From contig JBHLKY010000033.1 of assembly GCA_048886185.1 (NCBI GenBank), positions 1,621 to 33,620 on the forward strand: DNA of 32,000 nt. Reading direction: 5' to 3'. Source of the stretch: Candidatus Hermodarchaeota archaeon. Its GTDB lineage: Archaea > Asgardarchaeota > Heimdallarchaeia > Hodarchaeales > Hodarchaeaceae. Position numbers and translations under genes: made by a program. Every line of letters starts with the position of its first letter. Position 1 is the first letter of the stretch. This document shows, in pieces, positions 64 through 21,953 of this stretch. The notes under the pieces are model-generated. The model ran no database searches and was not told the origin of the DNA. It saw only the letters and a list, made by a program, of their open reading frames with translations.

Positions 64-1182
64 TTAAAAAGCTACTCTATATATTGCACTTTCTTTGTAA
101 CTAGTTATTACTTGAATATATCCGCTCAGAAGTTTATCGACCTCTTTATCTCCAGTATCAACTAGTAATGGCCTTCCCTCAAGGGAATTAAGTTTTTCTC
201 TAGTTGCAACAACGATTATATTCTTTTTCCCACCAATTTTGGTAATTATTTCCGAGCTTATTTGTTGGTTACCCCTTCCAAATAAATATCCTTGCCCTCC
301 AATTGGAGTAACAATTATTTTTGCCTTTTTCCCGACAATCAACCCAAGTAATTCTTTTTCATTAAGGTCTTTCCCCACAAGTTTCTTGTTATATATTAGA
401 TCGACTCCTAAAAGACTGTTGTCTAGATTTAATTTTTCCATAATTGCCCGAGTAGTTGTACCAGGACCAATGATGTAAAACGAATCCTCAGTCATATTTT
501 CAATGATCTCTTCAGCAATAGCTTCTTGCGAATATTTTTCACTGGGAGGTGTCCCAAATTTCATCCCTTGAATATATCTCTTCTCAAATGGGATCTTTAG
601 GTAACCATATAGTTTGGCGGATAAGATACCTTTTCTAAAGCTCTCTTCATCAATATCCATAACTTCAGCTTCTCTCACGTTTTGGATCCTTTGTTGAAGG
701 TATAACAAAGCTAAATCACCAGCTCTCATTGGATTTCGTGCATACACAGCTGAATGCATTTTCACTCCAGTTGGAATACCAAGAACGACCAAGTTTCCTT
801 TAACAGCTTCATATATGTCCCTAGCGGTTCCATCTCCTCCTGCAAACAGTAAAAGATCAGCTCTCATATTAAGAATAGCCACTGAAGCTCTTTGTGTATC
901 TTGACCTGTGGTTTTACCTTTGTGTATTGATCCTATAACTTGTGGTTCAAATCCACATCGTAGAGTAGCATCTTCTCCCATTTCATAAGGATATGTAATT
1001 ATTTTAAGGTCATCTCTTAGAATAGCAAGTCTTTTTATTGCCTCCATTGCACGCCGTTGTGAATCTGGTTTTGCTCCTAAACTCCTTGCTTTCTCTAAAA
1101 TATTGACTCCATCTGTTCCTTTTAATCCTACTTTTCCCCCCATTCCAGCTATGGGGTTGATGATAAGGCCTAATTTTTTCAA
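64..1182 (-). CDS. ATP-NAD kinase / AcoX-like family protein
   Basis: 372-aa ORF with TTG start. N-terminal NPIAGMGG, GGDGTARD and GIPTGVKMHS motifs plus C-terminal GPGTT and GGQGYLFGRGNQQ motifs match the ATP-NAD/AcoX kinase family. Lies 6 nt downstream of gcvPB. Confidence 0.85.
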   Translation of the reverse strand: MKKLGLIINPIAGMGGKVGLKGTDGVNILEKARSLGAKPDSQRRAMEAIKRLAILRDDLKIITYPYEMGEDATLRCGFEPQVIGSIHKGKTTGQDTQRASVAILNMRADLLLFAGGDGTARDIYEAVKGNLVVLGIPTGVKMHSAVYARNPMRAGDLALLYLQQRIQNVREAEVMDIDEESFRKGILSAKLYGYLKIPFEKRYIQGMKFGTPPSEKYSQEAIAEEIIENMTEDSFYIIGPGTTTRAIMEKLNLDNSLLGVDLIYNKKLVGKDLNEKELLGLIVGKKAKIIVTPIGGQGYLFGRGNQQISSEIITKIGGKKNIIVVATREKLNSLEGRPLLVDTGDKEVDKLLSGYIQVITSYKESAIYRVAF

Positions 1183-1188
1183 TTTAGA

Positions 1189-2733
1189 TCAGTGTTTTTT
1201 TGACTTTTTTAAGTACGCTCTCCAAGTGATTGCCCATTTTGAAGGATCATCTAGTGTCTCCGATTTGATTTTGTGAATAACACTATTATGAGGTGCACTC
1301 TTTACTTTATCAGGATCTTCATAAGCTTCTTTAACAACCTTTCGTAACCCTGCAATATACTCATCAATTTCAGCCTTTGAATAGGATTCAGTAGGTTCAA
1401 GTGTCATTGGTTGTGGTACAATGAATGGGTGATGTGATGACCACATGTGAAACCCAAAATCAATCATTCGATTAGTAATATCTTCCGTTGTGATTCCTGT
1501 TTCTTCCGTCAAATCATTCCAGCTGTACCGAACCTGTTCAATACGATGTCGGCCTTTAGCGTATGGTGCACTAGCACCACGAATTTGCAACACCTTTTTT
1601 AATAAATAGTTATTATTTAAGACTGCGATATGGGAAGCCTCTCTTAATCCCTCACTCCCTAAGCTCATGATCCACGAATAAGCCCTTAAAATAACTGGTA
1701 TTACACCATAATAACCTCTAATTTTCCCTATACTTTTGGGTAAGTTGTAATTCAAATAGTAGTTCTTCCCATTAAAATCAACTAATGGAACTGGAACATA
1801 ATCAATGAGTTTTTTTGTCACCCCAAGAGCTCCTGTGGCGGGTCCACCACATCCGTGAGGAGACGAAAATGTTTTATGGAGATTAAAGAAACACATATCG
1901 AATCCTGCTTCTTTTGCTCTTGCAACTCCTAATAATCCATTTGCATTCGCCTGATCATAGCCACAAATCCCCCCAACATCATGAATAATTTTAGTAAATT
2001 CTATGATTTCCGAATTAAAGATTCCTGTATCCTCAGGATTAGTTATCAACAACCCAGCAGTACGTTCTGATGCTGCTATTTTCAGAGCGTCTAAATCAGG
2101 TAATCCTTCCTCATTCGGATAGATAGTGATGATTTTATATCCCTTTACTGCTGCAGCAGCAGCATCTGAGGGGTGAGAAAATATTGTTGTAATTATTTCA
2201 TCTCTCTTTTCAGAGTCTCCATTGTAATCATGATACGCGTGAATTATTGAAGCCATAGCTAGGATCGCTTGGCTTCCTCCACCAGGTTGGAAGGTAAATT
2301 TATCCAAACCTGAAATTTCTCTCAGAAATACATCTGTTTTGTAAATTATTTCTAAAATACCTTGAACTGTGCTTTCATCTTGATTTGGATGAAGTTCTGT
2401 TAATTTGGGAGACGTTGCAAATTGCTCATTAATCTTTGGACTATATTTCATCGTACATGTACCCTGTCCGATGTCAATGTTCAAATCTGCTCCCAGATTT
2501 TCTTGCGACAATCTTAAAAAGTGTTTTAAAACACGCATTTGAGAGAGTTCAGGAAGTTGAGGAGGATCTTTACGAATGATTTCTTTAGGTAAGGATGATA
2601 ATCCATCACCAACTAATTCAATGATTTCTTTTTCAATTTCTGGAAGCAGTATTCCCCGTTCTCCTTTAGTGCTTAACTCAAATATAATAGGTTCATCCCA
2701 CTTAGCTTGGTGAAATTTGGTTCTTAGTTTCAT
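1189..2733 (-). CDS. gcvPB: Glycine dehydrogenase (decarboxylating) P-protein subunit 2 (beta), divergent subfamily
   Basis: LPELSQ..VLKHF..LSQ, GTCTMKYSPKIN, and PLP-lysine motif FNLHKTFSSPHG.GGP; C-terminal MTLEPTES and SAPHN. Confidence 0.9.
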   Translation of the reverse strand: MKLRTKFHQAKWDEPIIFELSTKGERGILLPEIEKEIIELVGDGLSSLPKEIIRKDPPQLPELSQMRVLKHFLRLSQENLGADLNIDIGQGTCTMKYSPKINEQFATSPKLTELHPNQDESTVQGILEIIYKTDVFLREISGLDKFTFQPGGGSQAILAMASIIHAYHDYNGDSEKRDEIITTIFSHPSDAAAAAVKGYKIITIYPNEEGLPDLDALKIAASERTAGLLITNPEDTGIFNSEIIEFTKIIHDVGGICGYDQANANGLLGVARAKEAGFDMCFFNLHKTFSSPHGCGGPATGALGVTKKLIDYVPVPLVDFNGKNYYLNYNLPKSIGKIRGYYGVIPVILRAYSWIMSLGSEGLREASHIAVLNNNYLLKKVLQIRGASAPYAKGRHRIEQVRYSWNDLTEETGITTEDITNRMIDFGFHMWSSHHPFIVPQPMTLEPTESYSKAEIDEYIAGLRKVVKEAYEDPDKVKSAPHNSVIHKIKSETLDDPSKWAITWRAYLKKSKKH

Positions 2734-2745
2734 AATTATGCACCC

Positions 2746-4146
2746 TTAAGTATTTAAACATTCATCCAACACTTTAACCAGCCGATCAATATCCTCTTTC
2801 GTATGAATCTCCGTAACGCAATATAGAGCGCTTTCTCCGAATTCACCGAATTCACTAGCAAGATCTTTACCTCCAAATATTCCCCTTTCAAGTAGATACT
2901 TATTAACTTCTTCTATTGTTTTTCCAGTATTATTAAAATCAACCATAAATTCCTTAAAATGCGATGAATGAAATAATGGGGCAGCCAATCCATCAATCTC
3001 AGAAAGCTTTTTCATTGCATATTGTGATTTCTGCAAAATAACTTTTCCAAGCTCTTGCATACCTTGCGGCCCCATTAAGGCTAAAAACACTCCTGCTGTT
3101 ATCCCCCACAATGCAGCCATAGTTCCAACGAATTCTTTACCTTGTTCTCGCTTATCAAATGATGTTCTTTCATATACTACATCACCAAATCCCCATTCAC
3201 CTTCTACTTCAGTAAGTGTTATACCAAAAAGACGTGATGGATATTCCATAACAAATCTTTCAATATCATGAGTGGCGATAAAGCCAGCTAAACCTCCTCC
3301 ATATTGCATATGAATTCCTAATCCTTGTATATCACCACATACGATATCAGCTCCATAATTGTTTGGAGGAACTAATATACCTAAGGAAACGGGATCAACT
3401 CCCACTATACTCAAAGCTCCAGCTTCATGCACTATAGCTGATATTTCCTTGCCTTGATCTTCTATGTTACCAAGATAAGATGGATTTTCGTAATACATTC
3501 CTGCAGTATTTTCAGAAATTTTCTTTTTTAAATCCTCAAGGTTAATTTTTCCAGTTGTTAGGTCACATTCAACTAATTTAATCTTCATTAGAGGTTGACA
3601 ATAATTTTGGATAATTGCTAATCTGTCTGGAGAAATGAATCTTGAAATTAACACTTCAGAGCGATTTGTAATCCTTTCAACCATTCGTATAGAAGTGCTT
3701 GCAGCTTGCCCCCAGTCGTATGTCGGAACATTAACAACATCCATGTCAAGGAGTTCTCCCATCATGCTTTCATACTCAAAAAGAGCATGAAATCTTCCAT
3801 GATCTTCATATGGTTCTCCTGCGTATGCAGTTAAAAATTCTGAACGCTGATTAATTTCATCACAAATCGCAGGAACATAGTGCTGCCAACAACCACCACC
3901 TAAGAAACTGATATTTTCTTCACACGTTTGATTTTTTGATAATATACGATTTACGTGTCTTTTTAATGCATATTCCGAGTGTAAAGGGTCAGGTAGATTT
4001 AATTTCCCTTTTAATTTCAGTTTTTCAGGAATATCTGCATATAAAGTTGTTATATCATTAACACCTATTTCTTCAAGCATTTTCGCCTTTATTTCTAATA
4101 CTGAATTAGGGATGTATGGATGAATTAATCCGCTTTTCTTACTCAT
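2746..4146 (-). CDS. gcvPA: Glycine dehydrogenase (decarboxylating) P-protein subunit 1 (alpha)
   Basis: HPYIP, FLGGGCWQHYVP, EFLTAY, F.YESM..EL..MDVVN...YDW, GDIQGLG...YGG; ends LYCVTEIHTKEDID. Lies 12 nt upstream of gcvPB. Confidence 0.92.
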   Translation of the reverse strand: MSKKSGLIHPYIPNSVLEIKAKMLEEIGVNDITTLYADIPEKLKLKGKLNLPDPLHSEYALKRHVNRILSKNQTCEENISFLGGGCWQHYVPAICDEINQRSEFLTAYAGEPYEDHGRFHALFEYESMMGELLDMDVVNVPTYDWGQAASTSIRMVERITNRSEVLISRFISPDRLAIIQNYCQPLMKIKLVECDLTTGKINLEDLKKKISENTAGMYYENPSYLGNIEDQGKEISAIVHEAGALSIVGVDPVSLGILVPPNNYGADIVCGDIQGLGIHMQYGGGLAGFIATHDIERFVMEYPSRLFGITLTEVEGEWGFGDVVYERTSFDKREQGKEFVGTMAALWGITAGVFLALMGPQGMQELGKVILQKSQYAMKKLSEIDGLAAPLFHSSHFKEFMVDFNNTGKTIEEVNKYLLERGIFGGKDLASEFGEFGESALYCVTEIHTKEDIDRLVKVLDECLNT

Positions 4147-4195
4147 AACTATCTTCTCCAGATAAAATTAGGAGATTTATTTAAAGAAACCAAAA

Positions 4196-4975
4196 TTAAG
4201 CCATACCTCCACCATCTACAACTAGAACAGATCCAGTTACCCAGCTAGAAATATCACTTGCAAAAAATAATACTGCATAAGCGACATCTTGAGGTGCCCC
4301 AACACGATTGAGGGGTCTATTTGCAGCTTCTTTCATAAAATCCTCCTCATCGATTCCTAGTTGATGAGCTTCTCTTCGGAGCATTGGAGTGTCAATATCA
4401 CCAGGACAAACACAGTTAACACGAATTCCATTTTTTCCGTGATCAATTGCCATTGCTCTTGTCATATTTACAACTCCTCCCTTTGAAGCGCAATAAGCTA
4501 AAGCATTAGATCCCCCTTTTAGACCCCAACCTGATCCAGTATTAATTATACTTCCTCCATTTCCTTTAATCATAATAGGGATGACACAGCGAGATAATAG
4601 ATAAATCCCTTTTAAATTTACATCTAAAACTTCATTCCAGTCCTTTTCCTCTAGATCAATAATATTTTTACGTTTTATGATCCCTGCATTATTGAATAAG
4701 ATATCCATTCTCCCAAATTCCTTGTGAATGGCATCAACTGTCTTTCTGCATTCATTAGCAGATGTTACATCACAATAGAAGAATTTTCCATTTCCTCCTT
4801 TTTTCCTAATCTCCGATGCAGCCCTTTTCCCCAACAGTTCATTAATATCTATTAGAGCTACTCTTGCTCCCATTTCTGCAAAGATTGAAGATGTTGCTAG
4901 TCCAATACCAGAGGCAGCGCCTGTGATTATTGCGACTTTGCCCTCTAATGAGATAAGATCTAGAAATTTTTTCAT
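4196..4975 (-). CDS. Short-chain dehydrogenase/reductase (classical SDR)
   Basis: TGAASGIG Rossmann motif, NNAG, catalytic YCASK, VNCVCPG, DGG at the C-terminus. Confidence 0.95.
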   Translation of the reverse strand: MKKFLDLISLEGKVAIITGAASGIGLATSSIFAEMGARVALIDINELLGKRAASEIRKKGGNGKFFYCDVTSANECRKTVDAIHKEFGRMDILFNNAGIIKRKNIIDLEEKDWNEVLDVNLKGIYLLSRCVIPIMIKGNGGSIINTGSGWGLKGGSNALAYCASKGGVVNMTRAMAIDHGKNGIRVNCVCPGDIDTPMLRREAHQLGIDEEDFMKEAANRPLNRVGAPQDVAYAVLFFASDISSWVTGSVLVVDGGGMA

Positions 4976-5117: not shown

Positions 5118-6473
5118 GTGTGTAATGTGGAATTCCCAAGAAACAATCTTGAAAGAATTGATTGGGATTTTCCTGATAGTAAGACACAATTTTTGACTCA
5201 TAAATTTCACTCTTATCCTGCGCGATTCATCCCACAAATACCACGCACAATATACGAGATATGTCTCAAATCAAATGGAGCTAGAATATTTGATCCTTTC
5301 GTTGGATGTGGTACATCATTAGTTGAAGGAGTTCTATCTCAAAATCACTCGGGGGGAGTAGATCAGAACCCTCTAGCTATTTTAATATCCCGTGTTAAAA
5401 CAAGTCCCTTGGAAATCGAGCCATTAAAACAATATTGGACGAATTTTAAATCTCAAATTCGATCTGAGGCTGATCAAAAGTCATTAAATCAGAATGAAAA
5501 GGAGCATATTCCAAAAAAGTTCATTTTTCCTAAGAGAAGCTTATCAAAACGTTTCACTGAAGAAAATACACGAATTATCTCATTAATTCTTGATTACATC
5601 GAAAATGAGATCACAAATAGTAAATTTCAAGACTTTTTTAAGGTGGGTTTCTCATCTTCGATTACCACTTTGACTGAATCTAGAAATTGGAGAAAAATAA
5701 GCATTTGGAACACCTTTCAAACAAAAATTAATTCAATGTTAAAAAGCATGACAAAATTCAACCATCGAATGAAGGATTTCAACAATTGCATGTATGAAGA
5801 TATTAGATTAGGAGATTCAAGGAATTTCTCATTTATTCCTAATGAAACAATTGATTGTATTGTTACATCCCCTCCTTATGTTAATGCACTAGATTATAAT
5901 CGAATTCATCAATTTAATATGAGTATACTTGGATATGATTATCGTAAATTTGCTAAGGTGGAGATAGGAGCTCATGGTCATTATATTAGCAATAGGTGGA
6001 GGTTATTAACAGAGTATTTAGCAGATATGTTCTGGTCAATTTCAGAAATGAGAAGAGTAACAAAAAAAAGTGGTGTCATCTGTATTGTGATTGGTAATAG
6101 TTGCCTAGAATATGAACAAATAAAATCTCATGACCATTTCAAGGAGCTTGGAGAGCTCCTTGGACTAACTCATCAATTATCTCTTTCACGAAATATTGAT
6201 TCTGGAAGTAAATCAACAAGTAAAGACATAGGAAACATCTTCTCTGAGTATTTGGTATTTTTCACAAAAGAGAAAGAATTCGAAAGGGAATCAAAGACAT
6301 TATTGTATGAATATGTTGAAATAACAATGTTGACTTATTTAGATCATGTGAAAAAAAGTCAAGGGACCTGTTTAAGAAATAAACCAAAATTATCAAAAGA
6401 AAGAAGAGAAATAGCGGTTCAGAGGGTTGAAGAAGCATTATCAAGGATCAAGGAAGATTGTCGTTCTATTTAA
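5118..6473 (+). CDS. Site-specific DNA methyltransferase, alpha-class, probably N4-cytosine
   Basis: GTG start. HSYPARF (motif X) and DPFVGCGT (SAM-binding motif I) precede catalytic TSPPY (motif IV); this order and SPPY are typical of m4C alpha MTases such as M.MvaI. Confidence 0.85.
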   Translation: MCNVEFPRNNLERIDWDFPDSKTQFLTHKFHSYPARFIPQIPRTIYEICLKSNGARIFDPFVGCGTSLVEGVLSQNHSGGVDQNPLAILISRVKTSPLEIEPLKQYWTNFKSQIRSEADQKSLNQNEKEHIPKKFIFPKRSLSKRFTEENTRIISLILDYIENEITNSKFQDFFKVGFSSSITTLTESRNWRKISIWNTFQTKINSMLKSMTKFNHRMKDFNNCMYEDIRLGDSRNFSFIPNETIDCIVTSPPYVNALDYNRIHQFNMSILGYDYRKFAKVEIGAHGHYISNRWRLLTEYLADMFWSISEMRRVTKKSGVICIVIGNSCLEYEQIKSHDHFKELGELLGLTHQLSLSRNIDSGSKSTSKDIGNIFSEYLVFFTKEKEFERESKTLLYEYVEITMLTYLDHVKKSQGTCLRNKPKLSKERREIAVQRVEEALSRIKEDCRSI

Positions 6474-6695: not shown

Positions 6696-7733
6696 ATGGT
6701 TCATGTATTATCGAGGGATTTCATCGGAAAAAGAGTAAGTCAGATACCAAAGTTTGGTCAAGCATTAGGAGTATATGTGTTATGTGCTTCGATTTGTTAT
6801 ATAATTCTCATAATTTTGTTAGATAGCTTCATTGTTCCAGTATTCATTGATGATTTTAATCGCTCAATTATGTTCCTAACAGCAATTATAGCAGTTATTT
6901 ATTACAAGGAAGATCTCAAAGAGATCCTTTTAATCTGTTTTGGAGGACCTCTTATAGTAAATATATTAGCTATTATCCCTGCTATTTATATTTGGTCAGG
7001 AAGTCCCTCTGATCAAGTATGGACTGATTTAATGAGGTTATTCACCTTTTCTAGTCTCTATATTGTATATGCGGGGTTTGCTGGGATTTTAATTTATTCT
7101 CTAGCTGTATGGATTTCAGGATTTTTATCATCTCGTTCCCCAGTTCATTCTTCAGCATTTAAGAAGAATGTATTCACGTTTATTGACAAAAAAGATCAGA
7201 ATGATTATACAATCAGTGTAAAAGAATATTCTAACAATAAAGCCCATACAACTTATCAATTGATTGGATTTCTGCTTTATCTATCTGTCCTTTTTTGTTT
7301 AACCATATTATTATTTTTGGTTCCTATCTATAACTATTCATTTGACCTTCATCTGTCAATCTGGGATCTTGGTTTAATTCCTGTACTCCTTGTGGGTTTG
7401 GCAGCTATTAATCTTTTATCTATTGTAATTTTTAGTCCTTTCTGGCATTATTATCCTTCCTTAACCGAGAGATATCCTAATTTAATTCTTAATATTCAAT
7501 CAAATCTTTCTGTAATATGTATCTTTTTTGCATCAATATTTTTCCCTAATCCCTCAAACATCCGGGTAGGAACATTTGTTGTTGAAAATGGCATTGGAAT
7601 AGAAATCTTATTTTATCTAATTATCTTAATAATAATATTTACACCTGCTATCTATGAATATGTTCAACCATTAAGAAATTTAAAGTATCATACAAAACAA
7701 CATGAACCAGCAACTCCTTCGGAATCACAATAG
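6696..7733 (+). CDS. Polytopic membrane protein of unknown function
   Basis: 345-aa ORF with many hydrophobic segments in two blocks separated by a polar loop (SSRSPVHSS...NNKAHTTY). No family motif recognised. Its stop overlaps the convergent gene at 7725-7733. Confidence 0.7.
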   Translation: MVHVLSRDFIGKRVSQIPKFGQALGVYVLCASICYIILIILLDSFIVPVFIDDFNRSIMFLTAIIAVIYYKEDLKEILLICFGGPLIVNILAIIPAIYIWSGSPSDQVWTDLMRLFTFSSLYIVYAGFAGILIYSLAVWISGFLSSRSPVHSSAFKKNVFTFIDKKDQNDYTISVKEYSNNKAHTTYQLIGFLLYLSVLFCLTILLFLVPIYNYSFDLHLSIWDLGLIPVLLVGLAAINLLSIVIFSPFWHYYPSLTERYPNLILNIQSNLSVICIFFASIFFPNPSNIRVGTFVVENGIGIEILFYLIILIIIFTPAIYEYVQPLRNLKYHTKQHEPATPSESQ

Positions 7734-8705
7734 ATTTTTATTCTTTTTATCATCGTCTTGAAGGAATTTAGTAAGTTTATTAGTTCTAAGCTCAAATCGT
7801 ATTTGTTTAATTTTCTTCCTTAAAGAACGAACATAATTAGAGTTTTCAATTTGGTTTTCATAATCGTTAGCTACTAAAAACCACCATACATTCCATAACG
7901 TCCGCCATATCCATCCCTCAGATCCAGGTTTATGTAAAATTTCATAGGATTCGATAAACGGGGGAGAATAAAGCTCAAATAATTCTGAATTCAAACCTTT
8001 AGCTCTCTTTTTCTTTCTACGTGCTTCATGAATGTAAACTGATCCTTCAGGAGTGTAACATGAACAAAAAGCAGCATTTCTTCTCCAACCGATCCAATCT
8101 AAAGAATGAAGAAAGTCTTGAAAGATAATTTGATGATAAGGGCTTCCAATCCCAAATCCATGGTACCTTTTTTCAGGAAAACGCGACATTAAATACATTA
8201 ACCAAGAAATGACATCCATAACGCTCCCCTTTTGATTAATCTTGAATGCTGGAACCATTCCTCCCAATCCTATATAATCTACAGAGGGGTATAGATTTCT
8301 TTTTTCAGGAAGATGTATAACTGGTAAAATATTAATATTAAATTTATTAATCAATTGAAGCCAATTCTGACTTGATTTTGTTGGATTCCCAATTACATCT
8401 AAGTTCACAATGATATCATCATCCTGAACACCAAGGTTCGAGAGAAATGATGAATATTCTTGAAGTTGGATTTTTATACCAGAGTTAAAAGCGCTGTAAG
8501 CTCCAGAATCTACTATTATTGAACCTTCAAAAGAGAAATAATCATGAAGGCCTTTAGAGATAATTTCCTTTTCTTTTTTACGAAAAGACCAATAAGAAAA
8601 AATAATACCTACCTGTTTCTCTTTCATTTTTTTGGAAATACTATATTCTTTTAACCATGGAAAAATACCAGGAACTACTCCTAAATATAGTTGCAAAAGA
8701 TTCAT
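7725..8705 (-). CDS. TGT/DpdA-like (queuine tRNA-ribosyltransferase-like) TIM-barrel protein, paralogue A
   Basis: Ordered motifs VDSGAYSAF, NLDVIGN, LPVIH, IGLGGMVP, YHGFGIG, SLDW correspond to the TGT barrel motifs DSGG(F/Y)Q through D(C/S). No PUA domain and no complete CxCx2C zinc site. Confidence 0.7.
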   Translation of the reverse strand: MNLLQLYLGVVPGIFPWLKEYSISKKMKEKQVGIIFSYWSFRKKEKEIISKGLHDYFSFEGSIIVDSGAYSAFNSGIKIQLQEYSSFLSNLGVQDDDIIVNLDVIGNPTKSSQNWLQLINKFNINILPVIHLPEKRNLYPSVDYIGLGGMVPAFKINQKGSVMDVISWLMYLMSRFPEKRYHGFGIGSPYHQIIFQDFLHSLDWIGWRRNAAFCSCYTPEGSVYIHEARRKKKRAKGLNSELFELYSPPFIESYEILHKPGSEGWIWRTLWNVWWFLVANDYENQIENSNYVRSLRKKIKQIRFELRTNKLTKFLQDDDKKNKNLL

Positions 8706-8857
8706 CCTTTGTTACATTCGAGAAATTATTAGAATTCTCAAGATGGAGAAGGGATTTCTAAATCAGTATAAAATTGTGTTAGGAATTAATTTTAATATTA
8801 ATCTAATTGATAAAAATAACGATTTAATCCAAGTTTCTTTAATAAGGTGGTTTTTAC

Positions 8858-9751
8858 ATGGTTGAGGTCTTTTTAATCAAAACTGATGATCGTATTAAAG
8901 GGCTGCAAGCTATTTTCACTCATTTTAAATCAGTTTTCGATGATTTAAAGGAAAAAACAGTAGTCATTAAGCCCAATTTTAATACAGCAGACCCTCCTCC
9001 TGCTTCAACCGATATTGGGATTATCAGGGAATTAATCAAACATCTTAAGATTTGTGGATCGAAGAAAATAACTGTGGCAGAACGAGCAGGACCTGCAGAT
9101 ACACATGAAACAATGATAACAAAGGGTCTTTATAACCTACAGGAAGAAATAGGAGGTTTTGATATAGTTGATTTATCTTCCCTTCCACAATCAGAATGGG
9201 TTCATTTTCTGCCTAGTAATTCTCATTGGAAGGATGGCTTTTTATTTCCCAAACTACTTCAAGAAGTAGATGCAATAATTGCATTACCATGTCTTAAAAC
9301 ACATCAATTTGGTGGCCATTTTACTTTCTCTCTTAAGCTAGCAGTTGGATTAGTTCCCCGCCAAGGATACGAATACATGCGAGAGCTTCATTCTTCTCCT
9401 TCCCAGCGAAAACTGATTGCTGAAATTAATCAAGCTTATTCGCCTACATTAATAGTTTTAGACGGTGTTGATGCATTTGTTGAAGGGGGGCCTGCAAGTG
9501 GAAAACTTGAACATCCTCAAGTAATGTTAGCAAGTACAGATCGAATTGCTATTGATGCTGTGGGAGTAGCAATCCTTCGAGATCTTGGCACAACACCTGA
9601 GGTTTCAAATGGGGATATTTTTGATCAAGAACAGATAGCCCGAGCAGTTGAGCTTAAACTTGGAATTCAAAAACCTTCTGAGATTATATTAATAGGTGCT
9701 GATGAAAGGAGTAATCAATACGCCAAGAACCTTCAAAAGATGCTAAAATAG
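8858..9751 (+). CDS. DUF362-family protein (putative Fe-S oxidoreductase)
   Basis: VVIKPNF, PCLKTH..GG.FTFSLKL.VG, LIVLDG, G......P..MLASTDRIAIDAV match DUF362. AGGTGG RBS lies upstream. Confidence 0.85.
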   Translation: MVEVFLIKTDDRIKGLQAIFTHFKSVFDDLKEKTVVIKPNFNTADPPPASTDIGIIRELIKHLKICGSKKITVAERAGPADTHETMITKGLYNLQEEIGGFDIVDLSSLPQSEWVHFLPSNSHWKDGFLFPKLLQEVDAIIALPCLKTHQFGGHFTFSLKLAVGLVPRQGYEYMRELHSSPSQRKLIAEINQAYSPTLIVLDGVDAFVEGGPASGKLEHPQVMLASTDRIAIDAVGVAILRDLGTTPEVSNGDIFDQEQIARAVELKLGIQKPSEIILIGADERSNQYAKNLQKMLK

Positions 9752-9777
9752 TCTTTAGTGGTCATAATTGGAAGAAC

Positions 9778-10272
9778 TTGATATTGAAAACCCCGAAAAT
9801 CCTGCTAATTATATCATGTGGAAAGAAGAAGGCCCAAAAGCTACATAATCATAAAATGCGGGCTTCTTATGCATATACTGGTCCTATGTATCAGATTATC
9901 AATAAGGCGAAACGAGAAGGTAGATGGGGATCTAATCTCTTCTTGGGAATTGTTTCAGCTAAATACGGTTTTCTTCGCGGTGATGATCTTATAGAATATT
10001 ACGATTTAAAAATGACTGCAAAAATAGCTGAAAAACACAATACTCAAGTAATCTCTGAGATAATCAAATGGAATAATGAGGAAAAATTTGATTATATTCA
10101 TGTTTTAATGGGAAAACTATACTTAAAAGCAATTGAAGACTTAGAAACTCATTTAGAAACTACTCTTGTGGTTGAAAATATGGGAGGTTTAGGTTTTGGG
10201 CAACAAAAATTGATTAAATTTTTAAACAAGTTCTCAGAAAAGCCTCATTTTCATATCAATTTCAAAAAGTGA
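9778..10272 (+). CDS. DUF6884-like small alpha/beta protein
   Basis: TTG start. LLIISCGKKK, A..AYTGPMY, IVSAKYGFL, IEYYDLKM match the C-x3-K / A..lY.G / SAkyG / YD pattern of DUF6884 (YaaA-like fold) as recalled. Confidence 0.7.
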   Translation: MILKTPKILLIISCGKKKAQKLHNHKMRASYAYTGPMYQIINKAKREGRWGSNLFLGIVSAKYGFLRGDDLIEYYDLKMTAKIAEKHNTQVISEIIKWNNEEKFDYIHVLMGKLYLKAIEDLETHLETTLVVENMGGLGFGQQKLIKFLNKFSEKPHFHINFKK

Positions 10273-10281
10273 TGATTAACG

Positions 10282-11358
10282 ATGATTTTCGCCCTTGGTA
10301 CTCCAGTTAACTCAAGATGTCGTCCTTGGACTTACAATTGGGCGTTAGAACCAGATGCACTTATGATCTCTGCTATAGACTTCCTTAACAGTCCAAAACT
10401 ATTTCAAAAAATTAAGAAAAATGGGATTCATGAATTTCTCGGTTGGGATGGCCAAATCATCTGTGATTCAGGAGCTTTCTCTGCACTCAATCGAAAGAAA
10501 AAGACCAATCTTGATATAGAAAAATTGAAGAGAATATACAGAGAATTAACAAACCAGGATCCAGCCATTTTAAAAATAACATTAGATTTTCCTGATGAAA
10601 AGATTTTAGCTAATTACAGGGAACTATACCCATTGGAAGTACAGCCTGTTGTTCCTTATGATAGACTCGAAATTATGGATAATATTCTCCAGAATGAGGG
10701 GATCCCTCAGTGGTTTTTTATCGGACGTCTAGTTCCATTAATGAGAAGAGGGGGTGGACATGCAAGGCGATTATTTTTCGTGCTCAATAAAGTAAAAAAA
10801 CATCTTACTAACTTTGAAAGTGGACTGAAAGTAAATTTATGGGCATTAGGAGTGGGTGCACCAAGTATTATTAATCAAATTGCGAAATTGGTTGATGGAT
10901 GTGATTCTACTAGGTGGCGTGTTACAGGTTCTAATATGATATTGTTACCTAAAGGAGGTGAACGTGGGGTCGGAAATTTAACAAAATGGCGTGGGACTCA
11001 CCATAGAATTAATCAAAATATTGAAAAAGAAATCGTTATACAAGTCCTTCAAGAAATTGATGAGAAATCTGGAGGATTGGAATACCTAGATGTCTTACTC
11101 CTACCAGAAAAGAAACCAAAACAGTTGAAAAATAAAGTAGAGAAAGGATTACCTACAATAGGAAATCTTCTTAATAAATTACGAGAAAAAAAGGAAGAAA
11201 TATCAGTTTATGACTTAGAGCTCCTTTTACGAACATCTGGAAATTTGAGATTGATCTTTAATTATTGGGCAGCTTTATCTTTTAAAACAAAGCTGTACCA
11301 TTTTACAAGGATCAAAGAATCCAAACATTCATGGATGAACTCAGTTCTAACTGAATGA
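10282..11358 (+). CDS. TGT/DpdA-like TIM-barrel protein, paralogue B
   Basis: Motifs ICDSGAFSAL, TLDFPD, QPVVP, FIGRLVP, WALGVG, DGCDSTRWR in TGT order; collinear with paralogue A. Confidence 0.7.
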   Translation: MIFALGTPVNSRCRPWTYNWALEPDALMISAIDFLNSPKLFQKIKKNGIHEFLGWDGQIICDSGAFSALNRKKKTNLDIEKLKRIYRELTNQDPAILKITLDFPDEKILANYRELYPLEVQPVVPYDRLEIMDNILQNEGIPQWFFIGRLVPLMRRGGGHARRLFFVLNKVKKHLTNFESGLKVNLWALGVGAPSIINQIAKLVDGCDSTRWRVTGSNMILLPKGGERGVGNLTKWRGTHHRINQNIEKEIVIQVLQEIDEKSGGLEYLDVLLLPEKKPKQLKNKVEKGLPTIGNLLNKLREKKEEISVYDLELLLRTSGNLRLIFNYWAALSFKTKLYHFTRIKESKHSWMNSVLTE

Positions 11359-11370
11359 TTTTAATTTAAT

Positions 11371-12684
11371 ATGTTTGGGAAGACCATGAGGATTAAAATA
11401 ATATTCCCAATTGGATTATTTCAATTCATTTCATTATTGCGACGAGCAATATTCTATGCTTTTTTCTATATTTATCTTCGAGATTTCTTAGGATTACCAA
11501 ACACACTAGCTGCCTCATTAGGAACCGCAAACCTTCTTGGATCAACATTTGGCCAATTAAAAATCTGGGGGCCTAAACTTGACAGACAGCCAGAATTAGC
11601 AAAGAAGTATGTTGTACGGGGGGAATTAATAGCTGCTTTTACGTACTTTATTACCTTTATAGGTCATTATGGGTTTTTAGAACTAGGATCTGGGATAAGT
11701 GCTGCATTCTTCATGATTATTATTTTATCTATACTTGAGATTTTTTGGAGCATGAGCGATTTAGGAGTAAGATTTCTTGTAGCACAAGCTACCCAAGGAC
11801 GAAATCGTGGACAGCTAATAGGGCTTATTGATGGATTTGGATTGATAGGCCAAATTATAGGCTTTCTGTTGGGTGGTCTTCTTTATCAAGATGGTTTAGG
11901 ATTTAGAGAGGGAACAATTTTTTATATGGTCGTAGTTTTAATTTTTCTCTGCGCGATGGTTATTCAATTTTCTCCTCAAACGAAAAGAATTTCCATTGAA
12001 GATACTTCAATAGTTTACACTAGTCCAAAGAAATTACGAGAACTATTCCAAGTTCCTACTTACTCATTTTTCATATTCTGCATTATGGTTTTAGTTATTG
12101 GTGTTTCATCAAGTACCCAGATATTTCTCTATTACTCCAATGACCCATATGGACTAAACTTTAATGACCAATTACTTAGCTATTTATTAATCTTATTTTC
12201 TTTATCAGGTGGATTAATAACTCCTATTGGTGGAAGAGCTTCAGATAAAGTCGGAAGAATTCCTGTTGTAATTTTAGCTGGATTTGGTGCCTCAGTTAGC
12301 TATTTTTTACTGTTTTTCTTAGGAAAACAATCTTTCTTTATGGTAGCAATTCTTTACTCTTTATTGGGTGCATCTTTTGCACTTCTCCAGAGTGTTCCTT
12401 TCGCTTATACAGCAGACTTACTACCCGAAGATTTGAGAGGCACAGGATTTGCTATTTTTAATATAACATTAGCCACAGGTTGGGGTTTGGCTGGATTTGT
12501 TGTGGGAGGTCCTGTAGCTGATTTATTAATCTTCATGGGACAAACAACGGTAACGGCATATCGTATTGCCTTTCTAGTATCTAGTATACTAATAGTATTT
12601 GGGACTTTAGCGTTATCCATATATTCAAAGAATTTAAAAAGGAACTCTTCCCTAATGAGTACTACTACGAATCATTTTTCTTGA
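11371..12684 (+). CDS. Major facilitator superfamily transporter
   Basis: Two hydrophobic bundles; MFS motif A in the second half (GGRASDKVGRIP); ADLLPEDLRGTGFAIFN. Confidence 0.9.
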   Translation: MFGKTMRIKIIFPIGLFQFISLLRRAIFYAFFYIYLRDFLGLPNTLAASLGTANLLGSTFGQLKIWGPKLDRQPELAKKYVVRGELIAAFTYFITFIGHYGFLELGSGISAAFFMIIILSILEIFWSMSDLGVRFLVAQATQGRNRGQLIGLIDGFGLIGQIIGFLLGGLLYQDGLGFREGTIFYMVVVLIFLCAMVIQFSPQTKRISIEDTSIVYTSPKKLRELFQVPTYSFFIFCIMVLVIGVSSSTQIFLYYSNDPYGLNFNDQLLSYLLILFSLSGGLITPIGGRASDKVGRIPVVILAGFGASVSYFLLFFLGKQSFFMVAILYSLLGASFALLQSVPFAYTADLLPEDLRGTGFAIFNITLATGWGLAGFVVGGPVADLLIFMGQTTVTAYRIAFLVSSILIVFGTLALSIYSKNLKRNSSLMSTTTNHFS

Positions 12685-12707
12685 TATTTACCCCGAGATG
12701 ACTCATA

Positions 12708-15158
12708 GTGATCCACGATCCCGTTATATATGAGATCAACAATATAAAGGAGTTATCTTTTGAGAAGACATCTAGAATTCTTCTCCTAGGTTCAAAACTT
12801 AAAATAATGCAATATTTCAGATCAAAATTTAAGAATCTTCGTCCACGTTTGATTTTCTTAGATTTATCATTGTATTATCAGGATTTCAAGAGGATAGAGA
12901 GAATTTTTAAAACCTTACAAGATACAGAGTGTCCTCAGATCAGCGAAATAAATGGGAATTTTTGGAAAAAAGTAGAAAGAATATTTGAAGACTGCAAATT
13001 AACCTTATGTGATGATGGATATATCGCTGTTAAAGTGAATGGAACAATCAAATCAGATGTAAAATCTAAATTAGATATCATTTTTGGTCATGACCAATTT
13101 GTTAATGAAATCATCATCGATTCTCCTTTTAAGCTCTGGTATGCTCCCAACTCTACAGTGTTTGAGAGAACCAATTACATTATGCTTTATTCACAAAATC
13201 TTAACCAACGAATTAAACCTGTGTTAAATGAAAAAGTGAGTGGAGGATATTGGCACTCTTTCGTCTCTAAAGGACAGGGTAAGGCCAAAAGGTTTAAATT
13301 TCGGGATGGTAAAGAAATTATCTTGACTCCTCCCCTTGGGACTCATTGGAAATTAAAACAAAAAACAATCCTAGAGCTATGTGAAAAAGGGGAAATTCGT
13401 TTAAATAAGAAGGGGAATCCAGAATATTGGGTTCCTTTAAAAAAGGGACAAATTATTGACTCCAATTGGTTAGATATACAAAGCTATGAATGGAATCATG
13501 ACCAAAACGTTATCAATTCTTCGGATCTATATAATCGTTTATTTAGTATGTGTTTAGATGGGGGGGATCTCTATCTTGATTTATCTACGAATTTTGGAAC
13601 CTCTTTGGTTGTTGCAAGTCGATTACAGTTAAAATGGATTGGATTAGAAGAAAATAAGTATAAATTTAAATTAATAATGAAAAACTTAATAGAAAAAGGG
13701 ATCCATTTTTGTGTATATGACTGTGAATCTCTTCCTGATTCTCTGAATAATATAAAATACTCTTATCATGAAAAGGACTTAAGTACTTCTGTTGATGACT
13801 CACATAGTCTTGAAAAACTATCGCTACAGCTGATTGAGAGGTATAATATTCAAAATTTGAATTTCAATTTGGAATTAATAGGTAATTGGTCAAATAAACT
13901 GATTTTAGGCGATAGTTATGATGTTTTACGACTTCTAAAACCTAATTTTCAGAAGAAGGTTAAAGTTATTTACATTGATCCTCCATTTTTCACGGGAACT
14001 AATGAAAATATAGTAATTCCAATAGGTCTATCACAACCACTTGGGGTTAACAAATCAGATATACATCTTTCAGTTGAGGATTTAGCATATAACAATGTCC
14101 TAGATGTTTCAAATCCTATCAAATTCTTTATGCAATGGTTCAAGAAACGAATTGAATTGATGAAATCCCTTTTATGTGATGATGGCTTTATTTTTGTTCG
14201 TTTTGATTATCATTTTGGTCATTATGCAAGAATGATCTTAGATGAAGTATTTGGTCGCCAAAATTTTATCATTGAATTTTTAGTTCGAAGAATGAAAAAA
14301 AATCTATCAGAAAGACAAGCTTTTAAACAAACACATCTAATCGTCCATTCAGACTCGTTATTAGTATATCAAAATAGCGAAGAAGCAGATTTAAATCCTT
14401 CAATCGTCAAAAAAATAAGGCGTAAGAACCAAGACTTTGCTGAGAGTCAATATTCTAATGATAATATTTGGTTAGATATTGCTGGTTATGAAAAGCATAA
14501 AAAAACTCTTTACCCAACGGAGAATTCAGAAATTCTTCTTTCCCGAATAATACAGATCTCCTCAAAAAAAGGGGATCTAATTGCTGATTTTTTCTGTGGT
14601 TCTGGAACTACCGCTGCAGTAGCAGAGAAATTAGGACGAAAATGGATTGCTGGTGACATTAGCCGTTATTCTATTCATGAAACAAAAAAAAGAATTTTGA
14701 AAATGCCTAAAAGTGCTTCTTTTGATCATTTTGAATTATCTGGATCTCAAACCTCTACATCTGTTAATCAAGGACTCCAATCGGAATTTAGTATTGATGA
14801 TGAATCATTACCAACTGATGTACCTGTTCCAAAAGTAGAATTGAAAATAAACATTAACAGAAATCAAATAACAATTAATATCGTCCAATTTATCCCCAGT
14901 AATTCATTAAATAGTTCCATAAGACATAACTACATTGATTTTATCGATTTCTGGGCTGTAGATTGGGATTGTCAAGACAAAATATTTATGCCACAATGGT
15001 ATTCATATCGGGAAATGAGAGGAAAAAAGGTGGTTAAGAATATTCAAGCATCAGCAACTCATGAGTACTCCAATCCTGGAAAGTATTTACTAGGTATTTC
15101 GCTTGTTGACGTTTTTGGGAATAGAACTAAACAATCCATGACCATTGACATACAGTGA
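12708..15158 (+). CDS. Beta-class (Type III Mod-like) adenine DNA methyltransferase with two tandem MTase domains, the N-terminal one degenerate
   Basis: C-terminal half has LILGDS, YIDPPF (D at 13977), DFFCGSGTT and the Mod-type tail FIDFWAVDW. N-terminal half has FLDLSLYY (D at 12861) and LDLSTNFGTS at the equivalent positions. Confidence 0.85.
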   Translation: MIHDPVIYEINNIKELSFEKTSRILLLGSKLKIMQYFRSKFKNLRPRLIFLDLSLYYQDFKRIERIFKTLQDTECPQISEINGNFWKKVERIFEDCKLTLCDDGYIAVKVNGTIKSDVKSKLDIIFGHDQFVNEIIIDSPFKLWYAPNSTVFERTNYIMLYSQNLNQRIKPVLNEKVSGGYWHSFVSKGQGKAKRFKFRDGKEIILTPPLGTHWKLKQKTILELCEKGEIRLNKKGNPEYWVPLKKGQIIDSNWLDIQSYEWNHDQNVINSSDLYNRLFSMCLDGGDLYLDLSTNFGTSLVVASRLQLKWIGLEENKYKFKLIMKNLIEKGIHFCVYDCESLPDSLNNIKYSYHEKDLSTSVDDSHSLEKLSLQLIERYNIQNLNFNLELIGNWSNKLILGDSYDVLRLLKPNFQKKVKVIYIDPPFFTGTNENIVIPIGLSQPLGVNKSDIHLSVEDLAYNNVLDVSNPIKFFMQWFKKRIELMKSLLCDDGFIFVRFDYHFGHYARMILDEVFGRQNFIIEFLVRRMKKNLSERQAFKQTHLIVHSDSLLVYQNSEEADLNPSIVKKIRRKNQDFAESQYSNDNIWLDIAGYEKHKKTLYPTENSEILLSRIIQISSKKGDLIADFFCGSGTTAAVAEKLGRKWIAGDISRYSIHETKKRILKMPKSASFDHFELSGSQTSTSVNQGLQSEFSIDDESLPTDVPVPKVELKININRNQITINIVQFIPSNSLNSSIRHNYIDFIDFWAVDWDCQDKIFMPQWYSYREMRGKKVVKNIQASATHEYSNPGKYLLGISLVDVFGNRTKQSMTIDIQ

Positions 15159-19755: not shown

Positions 19756-21915
19756 CTATTTTAACGGATTCTGTGCTCGATCTCTCCTTTGAAGAATTTT
19801 AAAAGTTTTTCCAAGAAGCACATAGATATTGCTAAGGATTTTTTTCTCAACTTTTTTTGAAAAATGAAATCCTTGAAGAATTGCTAGGTCAAGTGCTTTT
19901 CTTTGAGGTAATTTTAATTGTTCAGGAATCATGGGAAGTTGTATCCTTCGTAGGATGTCAAATTCTCTTATTATCTGATTTTTCTGTGAAGAAAGAATTT
20001 TTGAAACATCTAAGAATAATGGTTCCTTTAAGTAATCAATAATTTGAAGTCTTCCAAAAGATCCTCCAATTTCACGGCGACTTAACAAAAAGAGAACGAT
20101 AAAGAATGAGGAATTAAGCCATGCAGCAAGTAATTTAGCATACTCTACATCATCACTTCGAAGTACATAAAAATTCTTTGAACAAATATGTTTTGTTTCA
20201 AGAAAGTGTCCCATAACACCTGTTGAAGAGATACTGAATTTATCAATGAAGAAAAGATGGCCCCAGGGTTTTTTAATTTTGATTTGCTTGTGTATATGAG
20301 AGATCCATTCAGAACCAAATTTACTTTTTGCTGGGGAAGCATAATGTTCTGTAAGTGCTGTATAGTCTTCTATCCATTTTTGAAATTTTAACTCTGAATT
20401 GGGGATTGATAGTGCAAAATCTTCTACTTGTGGCGATATAAATTGGGTATATTTACCTGGTTTTCTTAAAGATCGGATTATGTATCTTTTTGGAATTTTG
20501 AGGGTGTTTTCCTCACATTTAATTATCACTTCTTCTTCAGTTTCCGAAATACTTGCCCATTTTCGATTGGGAACGAAAAAAAAGTTTGGACCATACATTT
20601 CAATCCCTCGCACAATATCCAAATGCAATTTCTTCCCACTTTTAATGAGGCCTGATCGGAGGAGTGTTTTGCGGAAATTTAAAAGTTCTGGATCCTTTAA
20701 AAAAATTGTCCAATTCCATTCTTTTGCCAATTCTTCTCGTGGAACCAAATGGGTTGAGAAAGGTTGCTCCAATGATCTCTTCGTGTCTAAAAAGCGGATA
20801 AATTGAATTTCAGTATTTTTTTCTGGCGTTTTATTTTTAGCTATAAGCATAATCTCACGGAAACTACTATCTTCGGAATAAGCTTTTTTATCCTCAGGTG
20901 ATGTTATGGCTTTTAATTGGTAATTTTTTAAAAGTAGTTCCTGTACACCACTAGAATACTGAGAAAGGATAGTTGCAGCTGGTAGTATTGCTCCCACTAC
21001 CCCATCCTCCTTAACCAACATATCCGCTAGCAGGAACGCATAAATATGAAGGCCTACTTGGCCCCTTAAATATTGTTTATAGTATTGTTCTATTTTGGAT
21101 AGATTTTTCCTTTGATTATTGTCTATACGGTGTATACGTGTGAAAGGAGGATTCATTAACACCAAATCATATTTATTTATGACATTTTGCTCTGTTTCAA
21201 GACTAGAAGAAAATGTCGCAAAAGCATCCCCGATTGATGCTTGAACTAACCGAAAATCTTGCTTGCATTCTGACAATTTCAGAATGATTCGACAATAAGC
21301 AATGAGAACTGCCGAAGGCATTAGATCATGAATTCTGATCGATGGAAATTGGTCTTTTGAACTCAAATTCTCCAAATAAGCTGAAATAAGCCTTCCTGAA
21401 CCACAAAATGGATCAATTATCGTTTTGAAAGAGCCAGTATTGATCAATTCTATAAGGAGTTGTGCTGAATTGAAGGTTGTATAGTTCGCAGCTAATGTTT
21501 TTCGATCCTCAAAGTCTAAGGACTGTTGTAGTAATGTTCCCAATGTATCATTGTCTAATAAATCCTGTATATCTGGGATTTCTATTGATAAAAGTGAATT
21601 AAGGCAATCTTTCTCATTAATAGCAGTAAAAATCTTATGGATGAATTCCCAGAGACAATTTGATTTAGGAATATCCTTTTTTAATTTTTCTATGATTTCA
21701 AAAGCCGTATTAGCCGATTTAATTATCAACTTATTGTTAAAAAAATGGAGTAACCAATATCCAGCTAAATAAGAGAGTATAAATTCATCTTCACTATGGA
21801 TGAAAGCGGGTAGTTTGGCAAAATTAAAATTAGCTTTACATTCTTCTATCCACTTGTTAATTTCAATAATATTAATATCTCTTGGGTTGAATTCTCTTTT
21901 AGTAACAGGGGGCAT
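19756..21915 (-). CDS. Gamma-class N6-adenine DNA methyltransferase (Eco57I/N-6 methylase-like) with C-terminal target-recognition region
   Basis: IIDPFCGSG precedes LMNPPF; GAILP; C-terminal WLNSS motif. No nuclease motif recognised. Confidence 0.87.
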   Translation of the reverse strand: MPPVTKREFNPRDINIIEINKWIEECKANFNFAKLPAFIHSEDEFILSYLAGYWLLHFFNNKLIIKSANTAFEIIEKLKKDIPKSNCLWEFIHKIFTAINEKDCLNSLLSIEIPDIQDLLDNDTLGTLLQQSLDFEDRKTLAANYTTFNSAQLLIELINTGSFKTIIDPFCGSGRLISAYLENLSSKDQFPSIRIHDLMPSAVLIAYCRIILKLSECKQDFRLVQASIGDAFATFSSSLETEQNVINKYDLVLMNPPFTRIHRIDNNQRKNLSKIEQYYKQYLRGQVGLHIYAFLLADMLVKEDGVVGAILPAATILSQYSSGVQELLLKNYQLKAITSPEDKKAYSEDSSFREIMLIAKNKTPEKNTEIQFIRFLDTKRSLEQPFSTHLVPREELAKEWNWTIFLKDPELLNFRKTLLRSGLIKSGKKLHLDIVRGIEMYGPNFFFVPNRKWASISETEEEVIIKCEENTLKIPKRYIIRSLRKPGKYTQFISPQVEDFALSIPNSELKFQKWIEDYTALTEHYASPAKSKFGSEWISHIHKQIKIKKPWGHLFFIDKFSISSTGVMGHFLETKHICSKNFYVLRSDDVEYAKLLAAWLNSSFFIVLFLLSRREIGGSFGRLQIIDYLKEPLFLDVSKILSSQKNQIIREFDILRRIQLPMIPEQLKLPQRKALDLAILQGFHFSKKVEKKILSNIYVLLGKTFKILQRRDRAQNPLK

Positions 21916-21953
21916 CCCAAAATATCCTTTAAATGCTGTTATTCATTTTATAC

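Follow-up and report, generated by a model that had tools for sequence, protein, structure and literature searches.

What do two strongly diverged relatives of tRNA-guanine transglycosylase (TGT) do in an archaeal chromosome when their neighbours are DNA methyltransferases (MTases)? The question is raised by a stretch of 32,000 nucleotides, here called the window, on contig 33 of a 4.84 Mb genome (96% complete) of Candidatus Hermodarchaeota archaeon. Paralogue A (7725-8705, minus strand, 326 aa), a predicted compact guanine transglycosylase of the viral DpdA type, is separated by an AT-rich divergent intergenic region of 152 bp (8706-8857) from a rightward operon that includes paralogue B (10282-11358, plus strand, 358 aa), a highly diverged protein with a TGT fold. 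An original prediction, made from the letters alone, saw here a new base-exchange or hypermodification system of a probable Asgard archaeon, with DNA as its substrate. The Asgard origin is confirmed by the close homologues of the cluster proteins, which all stem from metagenome-assembled genomes of Hodarchaeales/Heimdallarchaeia. We give somewhat better than even credence to the reading that the locus encodes a chromosomal DNA modification module of the DpdA type. A base-exchange chemistry would fit the fold and the catalytic residues; the word "new" was too strong, and a cellular archaeal variant of the DpdA kind describes the module better.

Fold, active site and ancestry of the two paralogues

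Models built with AlphaFold2 on the family alignments reach a predicted local distance difference test score (pLDDT) of 93.3 for A and 86.5 for B, and the top Foldseek matches listed for both in the PDB are all TGT or ArcTGT. In VIA-align superpositions A resembles the archaeal ArcTGT (1iq8) with Z 25.2 (root-mean-square deviation 4.4, 289 aligned residues) and the DNA preQ0 insertase DpdA (7ui4) with Z 21.7; the corresponding values for B are Z 19.2 (deviation 3.2, 263 aligned) and Z 17.1. We interpret both as (beta/alpha)8 TGT barrels on the strength of these models. The comparison with TGT and DpdA structures that had been proposed as a check thus has a clear outcome: both proteins model confidently as the TGT-like barrels they were taken for, with their catalytic residues intact. 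Family models at the sequence level recognise neither protein. Pfam TGT (PF01702) does not match A and gives B 17.6 bits against a cut-off of 26.3, the NCBIfam TgtA equivalog scores 27.9 bits for A and 19.1 bits for B against a cut-off of 350, and DpdA4/DUF6610 has no Pfam match in either. An hhalign comparison nevertheless shows the families of A and B to be homologous (98.6%, E 1.3e-15).

Three aspartates are invariant in each family, D66, D103 and D203 in 31 homologues of A and D62, D102 and D208 in 30 homologues of B. They lie in the motifs DSGA(Y/F)S, LD and D-(W/S), and the two triads align with one another and with ArcTGT at its DSG and HxFGxG motifs; the equivalence of the nucleophile is drawn from motif spacing and not from a residue-level structural alignment. 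They likewise match Asp95, Asp130 and Asp256 of DpdA. These DpdA residues are invariant across TGT and DpdA, and mutation of the two catalytic ones abolishes exchange (PMC10164549). The pocket around the triad differs between the paralogues: H131, a histidine invariant in A and in the DpdA-like proteins of mobile genetic elements (MGEs), is replaced by an invariant proline in B, which appears to have kept the triad in a remodelled pocket. The lack of PUA and zinc modules, suspected from the letters, is upheld by family alignments and models. No invariant set of Cys or His that could form the zinc site (CxCxxC...H) follows the nucleophile in A or B, the CSC of A varies across its orthologues and is missing from B, and both proteins end after a helical C-terminus with no PUA domain. 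A prediction of an A+B complex scored 0.00 and had no controls; it carries no weight either way.

The relatives of A are viral. It matches phrog_887 (E 2e-21), and tblastn recovers the DpdA of phages 9g, BRET, JenP2, Vid5 and MMDA13, of Vibrio phages, of 53 mycobacteriophages and of the Sulfolobus viruses STSV1/2, with E 5e-7 for phage 9g and 1e-10 for Vibrio and Sphingomonas phages; phages whose DNA is known to contain deazaguanines are among those matched. With the DpdA of Acinetobacter phage HD01, A is 29% identical over 240 aa (E 7e-14). A bacterial DpdA-like group from prophages and other MGEs aligns with A in hhalign at 99.95% (E 1e-38), and these bacterial relatives reside in prophages or adjoin an EcoRI-type MTase and GmrSD. 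Structural matches in BFVD are short viral "queuine tRNA-ribosyltransferases", including DpdA3 of phiST. These similarities indicate that A is a member of the viral/MGE DpdA clade.

B, by contrast, has no phage match. Its similarity to A (E 1e-15) exceeds that to the MGE group (E 6e-9), and an exhaustive profile search returns 8 cluster representatives only at E<1e-30, all from this clade. A sequence relation to characterised DpdA is accordingly found for A and not for B, which is tied to DpdA through its fold and its relation to A. The next relatives of B (P0315 and P0316) were rejected as members of the module, being short arcTGT-type proteins encoded beside DUF5591, QueC or Vut_1. The simplest reading of these relationships is that a domesticated viral DpdA was duplicated and that one copy diverged fast.

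A conserved core and its accessory genes

The open reading frame (ORF) map reproduces the predicted gene coordinates, the gaps and the divergent region exactly, and Pfam confirms the domain calls DUF362, DUF6884, MFS_1 and N6_N4_Mtase. Rightward from the divergent region follow DUF362, DUF6884, B, a transporter of the major facilitator superfamily (MFS) and an MTase of 816 aa, with gaps of 26, 9, 12 and 23 nt. In two related genomes (G070/G071, loci L027 and L024) the spacer between A and this operon carries an insertion of about 12 kb, which holds an ORF of 2,980 aa and several others. Because the insertion splits them, A and the rightward operon must be regarded as separate transcription units. 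A promoter and terminator scan gave 24 promoter-like sites against 29 expected; it used bacterial models that are ill-suited to archaea and is uninformative.

The arrangement is stable across the genus. The genus has 21 other species-level genomes, and a phylum-wide scan found strong orthologues of A in 17 of them; two further genus genomes have a weak B-type match only, and one more orthologue of A occurs in a sister genus. In the 19 loci fetched, whose ORFs were labelled by BLAST against the window proteins, the conserved core comprises A, divergent from DUF6884, B and the 816-aa MTase, followed by YjbQ and an ORF of 150 aa. About 17 species-level genomes have this core at one syntenic chromosomal site, with a helix-turn-helix protein, HflX, an S8 protease and phosphofructokinase to the right. 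Of 16 assessable genomes, 15 have the MTase after B; the exception is CP070760, where it is missing. Judged from this synteny, the module is chromosomal and vertically inherited. The expectation that the genes stay linked in related Asgard genomes holds for the TGT pair and DUF6884; it does not extend to DUF362, which occurs in 7 of about 17 loci. Two loci show further peculiarities. In CP070695 (L013/L002) B and MFS are separated by an additional ORF of 533 aa that Pfam assigns to no family. In CP070760 (L020) the frame of B is 574 aa long, the MFS gene is missing along with the MTase, and the left MTase is split in two.

The DUF6884 protein (9778-10272, plus strand) is a core component that links the cluster to known Dpd systems. 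It matches PF21818 with 48.7 bits (cut-off 30) and, with partial coverage, PF03883 (DpdC/YaaA, DUF328; H2O2_YaaD) with 34.8 bits (cut-off 29.6), and in PADLOC it hits PDC-M57A (2e-10) and weakly the DpdC model (E 6e-3). We interpret these matches as placing it within the DpdC/YaaA superfamily, though not as an orthologue of DpdC, and because of this membership the earlier statement that no dpd partner is visible is incorrect. DpdC, a PF03883 protein, converts 2'-deoxy-7-cyano-7-deazaguanosine (dPreQ0) to its 7-amido counterpart, dADG, in DNA (PMC12839542, PMC10164549). The Pfam curators describe DUF6884 as YaaA-like, probably a DNA-binding fold, with CxxxK and LSAxxG motifs (PMC11701544). The corresponding SCGKKK (CxxxK) and SAKYG motifs are invariant in 12 DUF6884 orthologues.

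The sole match of the window's DUF6884 protein in the phage collection is gp30 of Acinetobacter phage HD01, verified as DUF6884 with 51 bits and an hhalign value of 98%. In HD01 (PQ437329; L061, 6986-11014) the gene order is DUF6884, QueE, QueC, QueD, FolE and DpdA, with DUF6884 directly upstream of QueE. The phage gene, whose annotation says no more than hypothetical, may take part, so far unrecognised, in the 7-deazaguanine modification of phage DNA.

The remaining core protein, the 816-aa MTase (12708-15158, plus strand; N6_N4_Mtase 149.6 bits), resembles type III Mod in PADLOC (7e-57). Its two halves are 25% identical across 248 aa (E 1e-9), which suggests a tandem internal duplication of a beta-class MTase domain, that is, a single-chain pseudo-dimer. 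The C-terminal half looks active, with DPPF followed by FCGSGT (beta-class motif IV, then motif I), while the N-terminal half is degenerate, with DLSL and STNFGTS in place of DPPY and FxGxG. The product is probably N6-methyladenine (m6A). A C-terminal extension of about 140 aa is also present. The window contains no Res-like ORF, the helicase-nuclease that stands beside Mod in type III restriction-modification (R-M) systems. FolE, QueD, QueE and QueC are likewise absent from the window, and PADLOC finds neither the DpdB ATPase nor the DpdD-K restriction genes among eight proteins (the six cluster proteins and two genes to the left).

DUF362 and MFS had been counted among the parts of the system, a view that the wider survey does not sustain. 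DUF362 (8858-9751, plus strand; PF04015, 129 bits) is confined to its 7 loci, all in the subclade nearest this genome, and MFS (11371-12684, plus strand; MFS_1, 127.5 bits) to 6 of about 17 loci in the same subclade, always with DUF362; both lie inside the operon. They appear to be later, accessory additions in one subclade and possibly serve the uptake or handling of a precursor. DUF362 is in the same Pfam clan as LarA/DUF2088 (PMC11770544), whose fold it is expected to share; a sequence search of the PDB gave no match for the protein and the ESM Atlas no usable one.

The left side of A is variable. In the window it is occupied by an MTase of 451 aa (5118-6473, plus strand), 1.25 kb from A; elsewhere the place is taken by such an MTase or, usually, by a type IIG enzyme of about 810-1070 aa (Eco57I/MmeI-like), and in a few genomes one or two unrelated ORFs lie between A and this gene. 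An m4C (N4-methylcytosine) MTase had been predicted at this distance: MTase and spacing are borne out, and its SPPY motif is consistent with m4C, no proof of it. Between this MTase and A lies an ORF of 345 aa (6696-7733), which runs on the strand opposite to A and shares 9 nt with the 3' end of A. No family model matches it, none of 19 related loci holds a counterpart, and the ESM Atlas gave a poor model with weak membrane-protein look-alikes only; the ORF may be peculiar to this strain or no genuine gene.

Other genomes of the class carry more distant TGT-like genes of about 390 aa, which Pfam recognises and which adjoin N6_N4 MTases, phospholipase D (PLD) and PD-(D/E)XK nucleases, UvrD, AIPR and STAND genes; Asgard TGT-like genes thus recur in contexts of DNA modification or defence. 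Genome G014 (L008, 9690-12104) has two in tandem (392 and 389 aa); the defence-like island around them also encodes an N6_N4 MTase, a nuclease of the PLD/NgoFVII type, AIPR and a STAND NTPase. Where TGT-like genes adjoin DUF5591 in other Asgard families (L010, L012), they were set aside as split arcTGT/ArcS-type genes.

Substrate, source of the base and competing explanations

The genus has evidently changed the way in which it obtains 7-deazaguanines. The QueC equivalog model finds no match in the 22 genomes of the genus, including the window's genome, as opposed to 57 of 61 in the remainder of the class, and QueC is also absent from the sister-genus genome that carries A. Weak Pfam "QueC" matches within the genus were rejected, as NCBIfam assigns them to ThiI-like proteins and NadE (NAD synthase). 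QueE-like matches adjoin QueC in relatives, and only generic radical-SAM matches are found in the genus, so QueE has apparently been lost as well. The TgtA equivalog (ArcTGT) is kept in 21 of 22 genus genomes (about 505 bits; 505 bits in the window's genome, outside the window), and the window's genome also encodes a DUF5591 protein of the ArcS type. The queuosine-precursor transporter Vut_1/YhhQ occurs in 20 of 22 genus genomes and in 2 of 61 elsewhere in the class, one of these two carriers being itself QueC-negative. The underlying loci of the window's genome are G000:C1:168909-169448, G000:C6:132587-133051 and G000:C6:153478-154788, all outside the window. On an unrelated archaeal contig a TGT gene has Vut_1 directly upstream and a DUF5591 gene at its side. 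A search for Q_salvage (PF10343) gave no match, but none in the controls either, and is uninformative. With QueC absent, ArcTGT kept, ArcS present in the window's genome and YhhQ gained, the base is probably salvaged; the profile matches point to a switch from preQ0 synthesis to import, and a 7-deazaguanine would therefore plausibly be available to A and B.

For the preferred reading, a DpdA-type module, we envisage the following mechanism. Since the cell does not produce the base itself, the module would draw on salvaged preQ0 or a related base, which A and/or B, possibly acting together, would insert into DNA by the double displacement of TGT. One aspartate would act as acid/base, one would read the Watson-Crick edge and the third, as nucleophile, would form a covalent intermediate between sugar and enzyme, so that guanine at specific DNA sites is replaced by a 7-deazaguanine, most likely preQ0. 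The DUF6884 protein, translationally coupled to B, would then use its invariant Cys/Lys site to process the base once it is in DNA, as DpdC does, for example by turning the nitrile into an amide, and the pseudo-dimeric MTase of this operon would set a second mark, m6A.

Several observations weigh against this reading. B lacks detectable similarity to any characterised DpdA, and its pocket is changed. Neither preQ0 synthesis genes nor a DpdB-type ATPase or restriction genes are found in or near the cluster, which makes the identity of the base a guess, and without a nuclease the module has no obvious self/non-self logic. The pattern of QueC, YhhQ and the cluster is a single event at the level of the clade, not a set of independent replicates. 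DUF6884 also keeps other company. Beyond this clade it has been found beside DpdA only once, in phage HD01. In mycobacteriophage Angel it forms the C-terminal part of gp56, with no DpdA within about 4 kb, and on a viral IMG/VR contig the 9.6 kb around DUF6884 hold no TGT-like gene. A scan of genome contigs for a general TGT-DUF6884 linkage re-found this clade only, and DUF6884 is missing from three prophage/MGE loci that encode an A-like DpdA. On three of four metagenomic contigs examined, DUF6884 comes directly after an HhH-GPD/AGOG-like DNA glycosylase gene or overlaps its 3' end (L063, 5091-6444; L064, 5073-6462; L065, 5246-6456). One of them (L064) is a viral contig with capsid and portal genes, and glycosylase and DUF6884 form a recurrent two-gene pair.

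The common denominator of the DUF6884 partners appears to be that they open the N-glycosidic bond in DNA, and this pairing keeps alive an explanation by base excision. A and/or B would hydrolytically remove a base from DNA, as a restriction glycosylase or in dedicated repair; DUF6884 would bind or cleave the abasic (AP) site through its Cys/Lys, and the MTase would protect the cell's own DNA, as with glycosylase-type restriction enzymes. A role of DUF6884 at AP sites or as a glycosylase helper fits its contexts equally well, and YfjM, another member of the family, was recovered on abasic and ribonucleotide lesions (PMC11701544). The cell's inability to make preQ0 and a cluster with an MTase partner and no classical nuclease would also suit excision. 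On the other hand, the aspartate that reads guanine and the nucleophile are kept in both paralogues, a 7-deazaguanine should be available given ArcTGT, YhhQ and ArcS, the MFS importer inside the operon of one subclade suits a small-molecule substrate, and phage HD01 places DUF6884 in a cluster for synthesis and insertion. To our knowledge, moreover, the TGT-fold enzymes characterised so far are all transglycosylases, with no hydrolase among them. We regard excision as unlikely, yet as the alternative that survives best.

An exchange directed to RNA is still less probable. A and B would modify tRNA or rRNA with salvaged 7-deazaguanine, for example in the manner of QTRT1/QTRT2, and the MTases would merely be neighbours. 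The structurally closest solved proteins are indeed TGT and ArcTGT, the cluster is inherited vertically at a housekeeping-like locus near YjbQ and HflX, and the lineage has switched to salvage, as eukaryotes have for queuine. We nevertheless favour DNA, because A is of the viral DpdA type, the neighbours are always DNA MTases, a PUA or zinc module is lacking and a canonical ArcTGT is encoded elsewhere. A C-terminal tRNA-binding domain is missing as well, the full ArcTGT and ArcS already serve tRNA, and the operon partners are a beta-class DNA MTase and a protein of the YaaA/DpdC superfamily, which binds DNA. DNA, originally proposed on account of the MTase neighbours, is thus the better-supported substrate as far as gene content and sequence relationships can tell.

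The least probable explanation, a DNA exchange in which the pocket of B, MFS and DUF362 serve another scavenged purine analogue, could invoke the loss of QueC and QueE, the missing histidine of B and the joint gain of DUF362 and MFS inside the operon, but the pocket aspartate that reads the guanine edge is kept, YhhQ, ArcTGT and ArcS argue for preQ0 in the cell, and most genomes with the core lack DUF362 and MFS.

Under the DpdA-type reading, a scavenged base may thus give rise to a so far undescribed mark on the chromosome of the genus. In its full form, with a site-specific 7-deazaguanine (or a derivative) on Hodarchaeales chromosomes that is installed by the domesticated viral DpdA pair, finished by DUF6884 and built from a base scavenged from other microbes, this proposal is tentative and rather doubtful. 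As no nuclease is linked, such a mark would act as an epigenetic, anti-restriction or genome-protection signal rather than in classical R-M.

The wider surroundings of the cluster comprise metabolic and further MTase genes. To the left (64-4975) are genes for GcvP subunits, a short-chain dehydrogenase/reductase and an ORF of 372 aa, the counterpart of which in the related genome CP070695 is NAD-kinase-like. Genes for the T or H protein do not accompany the GcvP genes in the window; a GcvH-like gene is present elsewhere in a relative (L035). To the right, on the minus strand (19756-23744), lie two adjacent Eco57I/N6_Mtase-type ORFs of 719 and 596 aa. In relatives, the single type IIG enzymes of about 810-1070 aa, which are weakly similar to the 596-aa ORF, are located near A instead.

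Relation to known 7-deazaguanine systems

The literature consulted places DNA 7-deazaguanines in phages, in a few viruses of archaea and in the Dpd islands of bacteria, and a literature search found no published cellular archaeal DNA 7-deazaguanine system and no description of this module. If the interpretation is correct, a stably inherited DpdA module with two paralogues in Asgard archaea extends this chemistry to archaeal chromosomes and offers for study an insertase pair that is predicted to be independent of DpdB. DUF6884, a widespread family of phages and prokaryotes with unknown function, gains a testable role, and the exchange of QueC/QueE for a YhhQ-type importer with ArcTGT kept makes a clean case of an archaeon that relies on scavenged 7-deazaguanine. 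Eukaryotes depend on scavenged queuine, and since Hodarchaeales are among their closest archaeal relatives, a dependence on a scavenged base would, if true, form a parallel.

Among known systems, ArcTGT/TgtA is the best structural match to A and B and has the same catalytic motifs, but both paralogues are without its C1, C2 and PUA domains and its zinc site, and their scores fall far short of the TgtA cut-off. Eukaryotic QTRT1/QTRT2 likewise combines two paralogous subunits of the TGT fold in a lineage reliant on scavenged 7-deazaguanine; a specific sequence relationship is absent, and the Asgard substrate is probably DNA and not tRNA.

The bacterial Dpd R-M system (DpdA/B/C with DpdD-K; Salmonella Montevideo, 7ui4) shares with the Asgard module a TGT-fold insertase with the same three aspartates and a PF03883-superfamily protein that acts after insertion, DpdC there and, as predicted, DUF6884 here (PMC10164549, PMC12839542). 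The Asgard module differs in the absence of the ParB-like ATPase DpdB and of DpdD-K according to PADLOC, in a DUF6884 protein of about half the size of DpdC with its weak match to the DpdC model, and in its conserved syntenic site on the chromosome instead of a mobile island.

The closest resemblance is to viral DpdA (the 9g or DpdA1-2 type, HD01 and STSV1/2). These are compact TGT barrels of about 300 aa without PUA or zinc module, they share the motifs DSGA(Y/F)S, NLD, GGMV, HGFG and D-(S/W), A aligns with them at 24-29% identity, and the HD01 cluster has a DUF6884 gene as well. Unlike these viral genes, the Asgard genes are cellular, chromosomal and vertically inherited and comprise two very divergent paralogues; cluster and genome are devoid of FolE/QueD/QueE/QueC, and the operon includes a predicted m6A MTase. 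We interpret the Asgard module as a cellular archaeal variant of the known DpdA-type systems rather than as a categorically new kind.

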